This document shows positions 26,914-32,567 of a stretch of 41,341 bases of DNA, piece by piece. Each line of letters begins with the position of its first letter. Position 1 is the first letter of the stretch. This stretch comes from a virus (taxonomy: Duplodnaviria > Heunggongvirae > Uroviricota > Caudoviricetes), in IMG/VR virus record IMGVR_UViG_2718217863_000002. The stretch is one strand, 5' to 3'. The notes below the pieces were generated by a model. The model saw nothing but the letters and a program-made list of their open reading frames with translations, was not told the origin of the DNA and searched no databases. Both the position numbers and the translations under genes were made by a program.

Positions 26914-27034
26914 CGCTTTTTTCCTTTTTTTCTGGACGTTTTTGAAAAGAAAACTGGGGGCGCGGTCTTTTTACGATTGCGGCCAGAGTTTTACCCCTCC
27001 CCCCATCCTGTCGGGCTGATAATGAGAAAAGCTA

Positions 27035-27244
27035 TCATTTCTCGATGATCCGCAGGTTTTCACGGGGAGGACTGGGTAACACCAGGCGCTCACCGACACC
27101 GACAGACATTGTCAGGATGATCGTTGGTAGCGTCTCTTTTGCTGTATGACTGAAGGATATGGCGGATGCAGAAAGAAAGCTCATACCATCAATGCTCAGC
27201 TCCACCAGCTTGCCATCCTGGTATTCAATCTTCAGGTCTTGCAT
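27035..27244 (-). CDS. hypothetical small protein
   Basis: ORF track, 69 aa, between HNH and terS. Confidence 0.3.
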   Translation of the reverse strand: MQDLKIEYQDGKLVELSIDGMSFLSASAISFSHTAKETLPTIILTMSVGVGERLVLPSPPRENLRIIEK

Positions 27245-27256
27245 TGCGTGCTCCTG

Positions 27257-27553
27257 TTACCAGATAACCCTGCCTTCATTGTCGAACTCGGTAACCGTTC
27301 CGCCCTTCTCCATGCGTTGTTTAACCGAGTCGTGGCAGCGCTTGCATAGCGACTGAAGATTGTTCGGGTCGTGGAAGAGGGTTTCATCGCCCTTGTGAGG
27401 TTTGATGTGATCAACAACGGTTGCGGATATCACCTGATTTCGCCTGAGGTGAAACTCGCAGAGTGGTTGCTTCTGAAGCTGGTGATAACGCAGCCGGTAC
27501 CACCGTTTAGTGTTATAGAGATGATGCCAGGGTGAACTTGACGCCATATTCAC
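27257..27553 (-). CDS. HNH endonuclease (terminase-associated)
   Basis: CEFH ... DHIKPH ... NNLQSLCKRCH; 98 aa; GTG start. Confidence 0.8.
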   Translation of the reverse strand: MNMASSSPWHHLYNTKRWYRLRYHQLQKQPLCEFHLRRNQVISATVVDHIKPHKGDETLFHDPNNLQSLCKRCHDSVKQRMEKGGTVTEFDNEGRVIW

Positions 27554-27556
27554 TCC

Positions 27557-27586
27557 AATAAAAAAGCCACCGTTTAAAAGGTGGCT
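27557..27586 (-). terminator. rho-independent terminator ending the AT-rich module
   Basis: AGCCACC-ttttaaac-GGTGGCT then TTTTTATT on the minus strand, 22 nt after the stop at 27608. Confidence 0.6.
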
Positions 27587-27607
27587 TTCATAAATTACAA
27601 AGGGATT

Positions 27608-28084
27608 CTATAGAAGGTTTTTCTTTGCCATTCTTAGCTTATGTTCGAGATTTCTTATTGTTATCCCTAGCTCATTAACTTTCTGCTTGGTATATCGTTC
27701 TGAATATATCCAGTAGTCTGATTTCTTCTCACATATGTCTGACAACTCAGGAGAAATATCTTGAAACAAGAGACCGACACGCCTCCACTCCTTTGCAAGT
27801 TCAAGTTCCCTTTGAGCGTCTTTAACACCTTGGTGTGCGAAATCCCTCAGGTAGGCCCGATTATCTATCAATAAATTTGATAGCGCTTCCAACTTGGATA
27901 ATGTTAGCTCTCGATTCTGTTTGGACCATGACAAATAGCATTCCCATAATCCAGTAATAGTAGCGCTTATATATTCGCCCATATTTAACGACCTGATTGT
28001 GTGCAAGTAGTTAAACATATCACAAACAACCAGTATTTGCATACTGCAGTGCCTTAACTTACCTTTCCTACGTTTTATTGACAC
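27608..28084 (-). CDS. hypothetical protein, third gene of the AT-rich module
   Basis: ORF track, 158 aa (true start may be internal); AT-rich; followed by its own terminator. Confidence 0.45.
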   Translation of the reverse strand: MSIKRRKGKLRHCSMQILVVCDMFNYLHTIRSLNMGEYISATITGLWECYLSWSKQNRELTLSKLEALSNLLIDNRAYLRDFAHQGVKDAQRELELAKEWRRVGLLFQDISPELSDICEKKSDYWIYSERYTKQKVNELGITIRNLEHKLRMAKKNLL

Positions 28085-28176
28085 ACTGCAAAGATTCTCT
28101 ATTGATTACTTTAGTTATCGAACTTGGCTGCTGTATCGACAAAATCATTGAGCCAAAGAACGAACTAAAAATACTA

Positions 28177-28806
28177 CTATTTAGGGTTTCTTGATGCTTG
28201 CGTAGCTAAAAGCGCATACGCTGTCATGAAAATCATAGATATTAAATCAAAAGTCATCAGCATTCCATATAATAATAAAAAGATACTCAACACATGTGTA
28301 ATAAACCCAACCTGGAATAGTTTCAGAAAAAACTCACCCATCAGGACAACAGCATATACCATTAGAGGATAAGCCATATCGACAACCATTAACGATGCGC
28401 CAAATGTTTTATTTTTACCGTTATGTTTGATAAGATTTATTTTCTCAATGAATTGATTCGGAAGGGCAAAAACAACAACAAACACACCAATGCCAAAACC
28501 TAATATGCTCGGAAATATGGATAAAGCAACAAGGGTTGCGTCGAGACCTGCAGTGTTTGAGTTGGGATTGTAAAGCCCATCTCTGAAAAATGTCACAATC
28601 AACAAACTTAAAACAAAAGTAAATAAAACACCAGAAAGTACCCTCCGCACCCAATTTTTGAAATTTGCAATTCGCTTCCTTTCTGATAAAACTCCAGAAT
28701 TAGCATAAAAGTTGGCAATGATAAAAATTGCACCAACATATGGAATAGACTTAATTATTTTAAGTATATTCTCATGATTAATGTCCCATCCACCAACTTT
28801 CATCAT
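28177..28806 (-). CDS. polytopic membrane protein (4-5 predicted TM helices), second gene of the AT-rich module
   Basis: 209 aa; hydrophobic segments IPYVGAIFIIANFYA, VLSGVLFTFVLSLLIVTFF, ATLVALSIFPSILGFGIGVFVVVFALP, MVVDMAYPLMVYAVVLMGEFF, ITHVLSIFLLLYGMLMTF; start 1 nt after the upstream stop. Confidence 0.6.
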   Translation of the reverse strand: MMKVGGWDINHENILKIIKSIPYVGAIFIIANFYANSGVLSERKRIANFKNWVRRVLSGVLFTFVLSLLIVTFFRDGLYNPNSNTAGLDATLVALSIFPSILGFGIGVFVVVFALPNQFIEKINLIKHNGKNKTFGASLMVVDMAYPLMVYAVVLMGEFFLKLFQVGFITHVLSIFLLLYGMLMTFDLISMIFMTAYALLATQASRNPK

Positions 28807-28807
28807 A

Positions 28808-29743
28808 CTATCCTTTTCTAATTTTCTTTAGCAATCCACTTCCTGTTCTGGACTCATTATTAGCTGCATTAATTGTGTTTTTCACATCATAATAATAGTC
28901 TAAAATTGATGCCCTTTTTTTCATAGACTCAGACACACGTTTTCTTACAGGATAATCGGCCATTTTGAAAACTTTTTTCTTATTGCTTTTGTCTTTATAA
29001 GATATTTCAGTATTCCCAAACTTGCATGATAAACCTGCATAAACCAACGCGATTGTACTAACGTCAGTCATTATTGAGTCTTTGTCTGATGACTCTTTAT
29101 GCTCCAGCTTATCAATCCCTTTATCTTTCATTTCAGCCTCAACCCCCTCTAGCAATTCTTCTAGTCCTTCAATAAAATCATTAGAGTTAGAGAAAGTTAT
29201 TTCTGTTTTAAAGGAATAATATCCTTTAGACTCTTTTATAACATTATCTAGACTAGCAGAAGATGTTAATTCATCAACACTCATGCGAAAGGATGGATAT
29301 AATTTCCTGCGCGCATCTTTAAACACCTCATTAAGCACCTTATATAAAACACTTGCGCTAGGTAATGAAGGGCTATCTTCGATAGCAAGGATATGCAATA
29401 CAGGATCAAATACAAACCTATACTCATAAATCTTACTAGACTCGCCAAAACCAGCTGCATAAGTCTGAACTCTGCTAATAGTTTTTCTAACAACATCTAC
29501 CTTGTCAAACTTTAAAAAACGACCATAAACCATGTCCTCTCTAGCATTTATTTCATACGGAGCAAAAAAGAAATCATTCCTCAATGGAACAGCGATATTT
29601 CTTAAATCACCTTCCGATGACAAAACTTTGCGAAGTTTGTCTCCCAGATGCTGGAATAATTTAATATAACCCTCTTTACCAATATGTTTTTTACTATTGG
29701 TTAGAGGTAGCATCTGTATATTATAATATTTGTAAGTAGCCAT
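28808..29743 (-). CDS. hypothetical soluble protein, first gene of the AT-rich module
   Basis: 311 aa; ATG at 29743; charged, Lys-rich; no motif recognised. Confidence 0.6.
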   Translation of the reverse strand: MATYKYYNIQMLPLTNSKKHIGKEGYIKLFQHLGDKLRKVLSSEGDLRNIAVPLRNDFFFAPYEINAREDMVYGRFLKFDKVDVVRKTISRVQTYAAGFGESSKIYEYRFVFDPVLHILAIEDSPSLPSASVLYKVLNEVFKDARRKLYPSFRMSVDELTSSASLDNVIKESKGYYSFKTEITFSNSNDFIEGLEELLEGVEAEMKDKGIDKLEHKESSDKDSIMTDVSTIALVYAGLSCKFGNTEISYKDKSNKKKVFKMADYPVRKRVSESMKKRASILDYYYDVKNTINAANNESRTGSGLLKKIRKG

Positions 29744-29833
29744 AAATATCCATTGCTATGTGAGTGTAAACACACATCATAATTCAATGGATTTTGTAAC
29801 ACTTAGCAACGCAATGGATAATTGGGACTTGCG

Positions 29834-30052
29834 TCACATTTTTAGTTGGTTACAGTTTCTTTTAACTGTTCTGTTGTGGGTTAGAATGTCGCGCTTGGTC
29901 TGCCTATCCAGCACGTCGATATCGTGGTCGGTCAGGTAGATAATGCGAACCCAGCTGCAGGCCGTATCAACGACTACCGGGGCGGGTAAACTTTTCGCGC
30001 AGCTCCCGATCAACATCGTCATCAGGCATATGGCTAACAGTCTGCTGTACAT
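29834..30052 (-). CDS. candidate o-spanin (Rz1-like lipoprotein)
   Basis: 72 aa; MLIGSC lipobox, Pro-rich SLPAPVVV after the Cys; overlaps the 3' end of the Rz-like ORF in another frame. Confidence 0.4.
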   Translation of the reverse strand: MYSRLLAICLMTMLIGSCAKSLPAPVVVDTACSWVRIIYLTDHDIDVLDRQTKRDILTHNRTVKRNCNQLKM

Positions 30053-30242
30053 TACTGGCCCCTTTCACAACTTCCGCCTTACGTTCTGCCGCGGCGATGG
30101 TGGCGGCGGCGTTTTCTTCGGTACGTTGCTGATCGGCTTTGGCTTCCGCCTTATTGGTCCCGCGAGCGTGACCAATGCCGAATGCACCAGCGATAGTGCC
30201 CAGGATTACGACCACCAGCCCAGCAATAATTTCTAAGCTCAT
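29967..30242 (-). CDS. candidate i-spanin (Rz-like)
   Basis: 91 aa; N-terminal TM helix then charged Ala/Lys/Glu-rich region; ATGA overlap with the upstream lipoprotein gene. Confidence 0.45.
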   Translation of the reverse strand: MSLEIIAGLVVVILGTIAGAFGIGHARGTNKAEAKADQQRTEENAAATIAAAERKAEVVKGASNVQQTVSHMPDDDVDRELREKFTRPGSR

Positions 30243-30547
30243 CGTTCATCCCTTACTGATTGCGGAACCTTGCCAACCATCTGGCTATGCGAACCTACCT
30301 CGGAAATCCCAATACCGCTGATACCGATGTATTCCTGTCCGGTCTGCTTATCCTGAATGAGATAAACACCCCGCCAATTTCCATATGCAAGCCCATCGCG
30401 GAACTCAGACATTTTTGTCACGCTAATCCGGTCTGCATCTGCAGAAAGTTGGGATGATACAGCCATAGTCGATTTGGCAGGTTCAGGGCTGGCATCACAC
30501 GCAGAAAGAAGAAGCGCAAAAGCGACCACACATATTTTCAGTTGCAT
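30239..30547 (-). CDS. lipoprotein embedded in the lysis cassette
   Basis: MQLKICVVAFALLLSAC signal peptide with lipobox; 102 aa; coupled to endolysin upstream and Rz-like downstream. Confidence 0.5.
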   Translation of the reverse strand: MQLKICVVAFALLLSACDASPEPAKSTMAVSSQLSADADRISVTKMSEFRDGLAYGNWRGVYLIQDKQTGQEYIGISGIGISEVGSHSQMVGKVPQSVRDER

Positions 30548-31841: not shown

Positions 31842-31970
31842 TTAGCCCCCTCTTTTTGCTGTGAGTCCTCTCAATCGAGGGGAAAGATAAATTCTATTTA
31901 CTTGAATACCGTATGTACTTCTAAGGGTATACTTAGGATCTTTACGTTCGATTTAACACTGGAGCAAGAA

Positions 31971-32567
31971 ATGACCAGTTCAGAACTTTTGGAATTGATC
32001 AAAAAAGATGTAAGTGATGTAAAGCAACAAGGTTCAGAAACCATCCCGGTCGATAATTTACTTCACTATCTTTCAGAAATAGATGTGACAGAGCAGCCAG
32101 AGGCTAATGCTTTAACTCTCGAAGGGATTAAACATCAAAACTCCACCCAATTGGAAATAATGAAAATTGAAAATAGCTTTCAAATAGAGTCTTTCAAAGC
32201 TGCTATCAGTATTGGTGCGAATGCTTGCAGAACATTTCTAATAATGAATGGAGGTGCAGCAATCGCTCTGTTGGCTTTTTTAGGAAATATTTGGAACAAG
32301 AATTCCTCAGCTGAAGCTGCGTCTGCTATCGCATCAGCTCTCTATCTTTTCTGTGGAGGAGTCGTTCTGGCCGGACTTTGTTCGGGCTTATCCTATTTCT
32401 CACAGTGCTGCTTCGCATCATCATATCTTGGAACCAAAAAATTTTATCTTTGGCTCGGGCATACAATAAATGCTGTAGCTTGTATATGCGGCGCCGGTTC
32501 CATCTTCATATTTGCTTATGGTTCCTATTGTGCTTATCAATCAATGATTGCTCAGTTAGTAAAATAA
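31971..32567 (+). CDS. membrane-anchored hypothetical protein (opposite-strand insert at the Q-holin junction)
   Basis: ATG at 31971 with GGAG RBS (MTSSELLELIKK...); soluble N-terminal ~100 aa then about three hydrophobic segments; AT-rich; own terminator. Confidence 0.5.
   Translation: MTSSELLELIKKDVSDVKQQGSETIPVDNLLHYLSEIDVTEQPEANALTLEGIKHQNSTQLEIMKIENSFQIESFKAAISIGANACRTFLIMNGGAAIALLAFLGNIWNKNSSAEAASAIASALYLFCGGVVLAGLCSGLSYFSQCCFASSYLGTKKFYLWLGHTINAVACICGAGSIFIFAYGSYCAYQSMIAQLVK

Follow-up and report, generated by a model that had tools for sequence, protein, structure and literature searches.

The stretch of DNA analysed here (the window: the whole 41,341 nucleotides of IMG/VR virus record IMGVR_UViG_2718217863_000002) derives from an HK97-like Escherichia coli prophage that is integrated next to icd and whose backbone is nearest to Klebsiella prophages. 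Its late region carries an AT-rich cassette encoding a soluble protein of 311 amino acids (P1) and a membrane protein of 209 amino acids (P2), a candidate phage-exclusion system of the RexAB type. The cassette has a rare and patchy distribution, with small clusters and with the identical segment present in 10 of 5,426 complete E. coli genomes. An open reading frame (ORF) check confirmed the three co-directional minus-strand ORFs that the first-pass annotation, made from the sequence alone, had listed: P1 (29743-28808), P2 (28806-28177) and gene 3 (28084-27608, 158 amino acids). Their position between lysis and terminase genes was also correctly recognized, as two holin genes, a GH19 endolysin gene and spanin-like ORFs lie upstream of the slot, and an HNH gene, a candidate small terminase gene (TerS) and the genes for TerL, portal, protease and capsid lie downstream. 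The low G+C content, previously judged by eye, holds up when measured. It ranges from 0.31 to 0.39 along 27600-29800 and from 0.50 to 0.57 on both sides; the values per segment are 0.339 for P1, 0.346 for P2 and 0.388 for gene 3, against 0.536 and 0.521 for the flanking late genes, and the P1-P2 cassette as a whole (0.34) is 3.6 standard deviations under same-size windows elsewhere in the stretch. At the junction of the two genes (AAAAGGA-TAG-t-ATG-ATG), the P1 stop codon is indeed separated by a single nucleotide from the first possible start of P2, and by 4 nucleotides from the second, with AGGA as the Shine-Dalgarno sequence. The features of the cassette are the following:

28808..29743, minus strand: P1, putative cytoplasmic DUF4747 protein with a predicted RexA/RdgC-type fold; proposed infection sensor and activator.
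28177..28806, minus strand: P2, predicted inner-membrane partner of 208/209 amino acids and proposed effector, assigned from hydropathy, the AlphaFold2 model, loop charges and homologs located 3' of DUF4747 genes.
29744..29871, minus strand: 5' end of the cassette, including a non-coding leader of about 90 nucleotides (29744-29833), delimited by breakpoint mapping against three relatives.
28060..28176, minus strand: 3' non-coding end of the cassette, whose junction with the backbone carrying gene 3 lies at about 28060-28072.

These boundaries emerge from comparison with related phages. Homology to Klebsiella phage ST16-OXA48phi5.3 ends at 27571 and restarts at 29872. Phage ST101-KPC2phi6.3 and an E. 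coli prophage (L005/L006) have gene 3 and the terminator behind it in common with the window at 93–94% identity; their homology reaches 28072/28059 and restarts at 29872 as well. Where the window has P1 and P2, the relatives possess DUF2560, DUF551 and further small genes. The cassette thus meets the phage backbone in a recombination junction at about 29871/29872, within the 3' end of an o-spanin-like ORF, and at the other end the sequences of different cassette copies diverge downstream of the P2 stop codon. In a prophage of Enterobacter roggenkampii, P1 and P2 (83% and 69% identity) occupy the same slot, and the HNH gene comes directly after them, without gene 3. Beyond these relatives, a P2 homolog lies directly downstream of the DUF4747 gene at each of the ten independent loci whose downstream sequence could be read, namely the window prophage, L009, L010 (with P2 split), L012, L013, L016, L017, L020, L021 and L022. 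The nine loci outside the window represent Halomonas, Photobacterium (the split partner), Salinivibrio, Serratia, Enterobacter and four metagenomic lineages with 24–29% P1 identity. Over the whole range of P1 identities (24–83%) both proteins are kept at full length. The P2 homologs comprise 186–219 amino acids, are detected by phmmer with E values of 1e-15 to 1e-29, and each contain at least four hydrophobic segments, while the spacing between the two genes varies from overlaps of 14–47 nucleotides to gaps of 3–44 nucleotides. The region from about 28073 to 29871 is therefore a mobile two-gene cassette in which P2 is co-inherited with P1 and translationally coupled to it.

The first-pass annotation had regarded the locus as a three-gene module. 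Gene 3 could in principle be a functional third component, for instance a regulator or antitoxin; it is co-directional with the pair, adjacent to it and AT-rich (G+C content 0.38), and a terminator shared by the three genes follows it. Its distribution, however, largely refutes this view. Gene 3 is found by itself or in copies that are nearly identical to this prophage: a tblastn search of every fetched locus found it at none of the nine other DUF4747 loci, including the Enterobacter prophage that uses the same slot, and phage ST101-KPC2phi6.3 and E. coli prophages carry it without the pair at 92–96% identity. Moreover, the homology to relatives breaks off between P2 and gene 3. Because gene 3 and the terminator occur without the pair, and the pair occurs without gene 3, the unit consists of two genes, and judged by these sequence comparisons gene 3 is a backbone neighbor instead of a component; that it contributes to the system is very improbable.

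P1 had been thought to belong to no known family, which proved wrong. It matches Pfam DUF4747 (PF15931) in hmmscan with 88.1 bits (cutoff 27; E 8.4e-25) over positions 1-255 of the 257-position model, and an identical protein bears the RefSeq label 'DUF4747 family protein'. It also falls into PHROG 10040 (function unknown), and it has no match in PADLOC (E<=1) or NCBIfam; searches of the PDB sequences with P1 and with the profile of its family returned nothing relevant. The family is small. An exhaustive HMMER search of 1.84 billion representative sequences recovered only 93 clusters, nearly all of them single-domain proteins of about 300 amino acids, with named members from Serratia, Enterobacter, Hafnia, Salinivibrio, Idiomarina, Allochromatium, Halomonas, Photobacterium and Comamonas. 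No match to P1 was obtained by tblastn in 50,697 records of cultured phage genomes. The sole plasmid match in such a search was discarded, as the 4-Mb record that contains it is evidently chromosomal.

The structure of P1 was modeled by AlphaFold2 from a 70-sequence alignment with high confidence (predicted local distance difference test, pLDDT, 93.6; predicted template modeling score, pTM, 0.90). Among 350,542 PDB chains searched with Foldseek, chains B and A of lambda RexA (8TWQ) ranked first and second (E 1.2e-6 and 1.3e-5, probability 1.00, whole-length alignment), followed by E. coli RdgC, and 8TWQ was the top match by two methods. Neither a nuclease nor any other enzymatic fold is found among the structural matches. 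According to the model, P1 is thus a DUF4747 protein with the fold of lambda RexA. Four of its residues (Y26, H117, N186 and G243) are invariant across 70 DUF4747 proteins whose mean column identity is only about 29%, and they may serve in DNA binding, contact with the partner or catalysis. The protein is basic, with an isoelectric point of 9.2.

P2 had been described as polytopic with four to five transmembrane helices. In agreement with this, its AlphaFold2 model (14-sequence alignment; pLDDT 80, pTM 0.76) consists of two short N-terminal helices, which form a hairpin, and four long transmembrane helices at residues 49-73, 90-113, 137-162 and 168-206. Lysine and arginine residues number six in the N-terminal region, one in the first loop, four in the central loop, none in the third loop and two at the C-terminus. 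This fits a predicted topology with four membrane passages, both termini inside and a basic, cytoplasmic central loop. In every homolog the second transmembrane helix contains the invariant residues P99, L102, G103, F104, G105, I106 and G107 (PxxLGFGIG; window positions 28486-28512), and P147 and L148 in the third helix are invariant in the family alignment. The glycine-rich motif may line a pore or mediate packing of an oligomer. No family was found for P2 in Pfam, PADLOC (E<=1) or NCBIfam. A holin identity was considered and rejected: the best PHROG match to holins has an E value of 0.56 and was taken as chance, and the pair is also present in loci without lysis genes. A match to a lysis function, which the first-pass annotation had named as evidence that would speak against its own reading, was not obtained at a significant level.

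Of the five Rex-like systems described up to 2026 (PMC12894663), four use the membrane protein as the effector and depend on both genes. The exception in this division of labor is represented by mycobacteriophage Butters, in which the antagonism comes mainly from gp30, and gp31 has a modulating effect on gp30. By the same reversed logic P1 would be an antiviral or toxic effector that P2 tethers or sequesters at the membrane until it is released by infection; the invariant residues of P1 could then mark an active or binding site, and its basic character might be counted in the same direction. However, besides the predominance of membrane effectors among the described systems, no enzymatic fold turned up among the matches of P1, and P2 shows strong conservation and an invariant membrane motif rich in glycine, a feature seen more typically in pore or channel elements than in passive anchors. 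We consider the reversed arrangement unlikely.

Outside prophages, defense systems are found beside the pair. In Serratia the pair abuts a Septu-type PtuA/PtuB system (PADLOC PDC-M01A, 3.5e-166; PtuA, 1.2e-143). This Serratia marcescens copy resides in a non-prophage chromosomal island, but a phage o-spanin fragment of about 250 bp is preserved upstream of it (contig L020, 5740-6000), and the pair was therefore captured from a phage of the window's type. At locus L013 the pair is situated between an MmeI-family enzyme with a DEAD helicase on one side and the methylase and restriction genes of a type II pair (3e-80 and 1.2e-39) on the other. Finally, a distant pair with 24% and 28% identity to P1 and P2 (L017, 18-3719) immediately precedes gop-beta (3.9e-139) and a homolog of P4 cII, and the gop-beta-cII region is a known defense hotspot of P4-like satellites. 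Similarly, DUF4747 operons of Acinetobacter are controlled by the DNA-damage-responsive CapK/CapS and often have restriction-modification genes upstream (PMC13373217). The pair thus moves as a unit among prophages and defense islands, and its context outside prophages points to defense.

This context bears on the question whether the pair instead serves the development of the phage itself, tuning the timing of lysis or the transition from lysogeny to the lytic cycle while being expressed with the late and lysis operon. The pair is located directly downstream of the holin, endolysin and spanin genes on the same strand, an own promoter is not identifiable, and the very weak holin match of P2 might be read in the same way. 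Moreover, lambda RexA and RexB have been proposed to help the lysogeny-to-lytic transition, and RexA biases the lambda switch to lytic growth (bioRxiv 10.1101/2021.04.19.439022). However, the holin match is not significant, the pair also occurs beside Septu, restriction-modification genes and the P4 hotspot, where lysis or other phage genes are lacking, and close phage relatives do without it and keep other cargo in the slot. A developmental role is accordingly regarded as quite improbable. The same low probability is assigned to a selfish, toxin-antitoxin-like addiction cassette or to inert cargo that hitch-hikes without playing any part against phages. A membrane-toxic protein with a soluble partner would resemble some toxin-antitoxin modules, and the cassette is AT-rich, mobile and rare. 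Against this stand the preservation of both proteins at full length from 24% to 83% identity with their invariant motifs, the repeated placement in defense hotspots, and the RexA fold, which links the pair to proven exclusion systems.

The promoter region that the first-pass annotation had attributed to the module was not borne out. Sigma-70-like matches are as frequent as in shuffled sequences (10 versus 9.2 +/- 3.1), and scans of three cassette copies in their three contexts revealed none at a conserved position. A leader of about 90 nucleotides travels with the pair, and comparison with the Serratia and Enterobacter copies revealed a conserved TATGAT/TAAGAT hexamer about 45 nucleotides before the ATG, beside which no consistent -35 element was found. 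As the gene upstream of the Serratia copy is divergent, a promoter must be present somewhere in the 540 nucleotides upstream of P1. In the prophage, expression by read-through from the late operon is possible.

We estimate a probability of about 0.65 that the cassette is an abortive-infection or phage-exclusion system of the RexAB type. This reading is favored by the constant pairing in ten of ten loci, the predicted topology of P2, the defense context, the behavior of the cassette as a mobile unit and the comparable placement of genes 30 and 31 in phage Sbash, and the RexA fold ties the pair to systems whose exclusion function has been proven experimentally. By analogy with lambda RexAB, Sbash gp30/31, CarolAnn gp44/43 and the RexAB-pp system of Pseudomonas putida, P1, probably as a DNA-binding dimer, would recognize a superinfecting phage by one of its products or by a DNA-protein intermediate; its isoelectric point and RexA/RdgC fold lend indirect support to non-specific DNA binding by a dimer. 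P1 might then engage the basic central cytoplasmic loop of P2, whereupon P2 would oligomerize or open, dissipate the membrane potential and ATP and impair the integrity of the membrane. The infected cell would be arrested and the infection thereby aborted.

Several observations weigh against this interpretation. P1 matches neither PF15969 nor the PADLOC RexA model, and its BLASTP comparison with RexA is not significant. Comparison of the P1 family with RexA and CarolAnn gp44 by hhalign gave probabilities of 0.1% and 0.2%, respectively. P2 likewise did not match RexB in BLASTP or hhalign (0.1%) or CarolAnn gp43 in hhalign (0.1%), and no link of Sbash gp30 or gp44 to the P1-family profile was seen by hhalign; since only single sequences served as templates, these hhalign tests have little power. 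A Foldseek search of P2 against viral structures yielded nothing at E<=0.001. Furthermore, the cassette is not located beside the immunity repressor as in lambda, a promoter for expression in the lysogen was not identified, and no experiment on a genuine member of PF15931 was found in the literature that could be searched. The Rex mechanism itself is unresolved in the literature: some 70 years after the discovery of exclusion by lambda Rex, how it is triggered and gated is still unsolved. The proposal of a RexA/RexB-like exclusion system thus survives with respect to the RexA fold, the four-helix membrane partner and the association with defense islands, whereas its gene count, its promoter, the family status of P1 and its novelty had to be revised.

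Two further features complete the slot:

27608..28021, minus strand: gene 3, a neighbor outside the system, probably encoding a soluble protein of 124-136 amino acids; PHROG 28881/12412 (function unknown).
27557..27588, minus strand: hairpin and T-run resembling an intrinsic terminator, a backbone feature recognized by sequence and fold that closes the cargo slot just before the HNH gene.

For gene 3, the possible starts are GTG 28084 and ATG 28042, 28021 and 27982, of which the ATGs at 28021 and 27982 are conserved. Most homologs comprise 124 amino acids; they are common in prophages of Klebsiella, where they lie immediately upstream of the terminator and the HNH gene. To judge from these lengths and starts, the product probably has 124–136 residues, and the 158 residues read from GTG 28084 in the first-pass annotation are unlikely. 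PGAP left the gene unannotated in an identical E. coli record, but the ORF is intact in diverged copies, with differences of 6/3/8 and 3/3/10 by codon position (a mild third-position bias). No functional match was found in Pfam, PADLOC, PHROG, NCBIfam or PDB sequence searches; a PADLOC CARF3 match (E 0.034) was dismissed as chance. The terminator, which had been described as the clean end of the unit, is present before the HNH gene: a hairpin (AAAGCCACC, a loop of 8 nucleotides, GGTGGCTTT) is followed by TTTATT at 27557-27588 on the minus strand and folds with -18.7 kcal/mol (z -2.4), although a simple pattern-based terminator scanner did not report it. It does not belong to the cassette, however, because relatives with other cargo also possess it; the homology to ST16-OXA48phi5.3 reaches 27571 within the hairpin, and that to L005/L006 covers it entirely. 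An Rfam scan of 27000-30500 detected no RNA family.

Two other regions of the window deserve mention in their own right. A 221-amino-acid ORF (31902-32567, plus strand) lies opposite to the late-gene strand between the gene for a Q-like antiterminator (DUF1133) and the holin genes. Its G+C content is about 0.39-0.41, the C-terminal half of its product is hydrophobic, it has no Pfam family, and PGAP labels it "hypothetical protein"; it is a second candidate for moron-like cargo. The only other strongly AT-rich part of the window is located at about 1-2500 (G+C content 0.29-0.40), with a DUF1398 ORF at 1-405 on the plus strand, after which a gene for a UmuC-like Y-family polymerase (IMS, IMS_C, DUF4113) follows at 2668-3993 on the minus strand.

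With regard to novelty, the label 'uncharacterised' is correct for this lineage but not for its class. A PADLOC search (PADLOC-DB 2.0) with the three proteins, which had been suggested as a check, returned no known defense system. The class itself, with its five Rex-like systems, was already known; 'DUF4747/CarolAnn' operons have been listed as immune operons (PMC13373217), a status that rests on analogy and not on an assay, and the RexAB-type system of P. putida was validated in 2026 (PMC12894663). New here are the evidence that links DUF4747 to the RexA fold, the partner family with its motif, the delimitation of the unit to two genes and the defense-island context. DUF4747 together with a four-helix membrane partner, for which neither Pfam nor PADLOC has a model, forms a detectable two-gene signature for the annotation of prophages and defense islands in Gammaproteobacteria and at least one betaproteobacterium. 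The example described here is native to E. coli and directly testable, and it may influence how susceptible to phages the clinical lineages of E. coli and Klebsiella with this prophage are. Tentatively, DUF4747 and P2 might even constitute a distinct, proteobacteria-wide Rex-like lineage that has only the sensor fold in common with RexA and whose membrane effector evolved independently of RexB, although we rate this as doubtful; such a P2 could act on the membrane by a different mechanism. Were this true, a system that occurs naturally in E. coli prophages and escapes PADLOC would provide a tractable second Rex model, which could be used to study how Rex-type sensors are triggered and open their membrane partners.

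How the cassette relates to the known systems depends on the level of comparison. On the level of sequence, it combines DUF4747 with an unnamed partner family and, by the searches made, is a member of neither the RexA/RexB nor the gp44/gp43 family. In the literature, RexA and the proteins of the actinophages are said to 'contain DUF4747', a claim based on weak HHpred hits. In Pfam, PF15969 is the only family that lambda RexA matches, and neither CarolAnn gp44 nor Sbash gp30 matches DUF4747 or any other Pfam family in hmmscan. Lambda RexA and RexB are readily recognized by their own models in Pfam (PF15969 and PF15968; 1e-97 and 8.5e-92) and PADLOC (9e-110 and 8.6e-61), while P2 matches neither PF15968 nor the PADLOC RexB model. 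P1 differs from RexA in its DUF4747 membership and resembles it in its predicted fold; neither protein of the cassette has detectable sequence similarity to its lambda counterpart. Like RexB, gp31/gp43 and PP_5644, P2 has four predicted transmembrane helices, both termini inside and a basic central loop, but with 209 amino acids it is larger than RexB (144 amino acids), has an additional N-terminal helical hairpin and carries the PxxLGFGIG motif that RexB lacks. The genomic settings differ as well, since lambda rex is located beside cI under P_RM and the present cassette occupies a cargo slot in the late region.

Exclusion that requires both genes and is accompanied by depolarization and growth arrest has been described for lambda, Sbash, CarolAnn and P. 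putida only. The RexAB-pp system of P. putida prophage P1 (PP_5643/PP_5644; Sci Rep 2026, PMC12894663), compared by its description, is encoded near a CI-like repressor, unlike the cassette in the window. In the 'DUF4747/CarolAnn' operons downstream of capK-capS (EMBO J 2026, PMC13373217) the same Pfam label is found, and their restriction-modification neighbors recall those at locus L013. Those operons, 17 cases in Acinetobacter, follow a DNA-damage kinase/repressor pair, whereas capK and capS are absent here. The two-gene layout of a soluble and a four-helix membrane protein is also that of Sbash gp30/gp31, CarolAnn gp44/gp43 and Butters gp30/gp31, which are proven prophage-mediated defense systems, although the soluble proteins of the actinophages are longer (370–372 versus 311 amino acids) and the host phyla differ. 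The 165-amino-acid protein of Sbash (gp31, judging by its length) ranked ninth among the viral fold matches to P2; with an E value of 1.5 this match is not significant, but its TM-scores (0.43/0.51) are the highest among the top ten. The placement of the Sbash genes is also similar, as genes 30 and 31 (L023, 26933-28508) directly follow a cassette of lysin A, lysin B and holin, much as P1 and P2 follow the lysis genes of the prophage described here.

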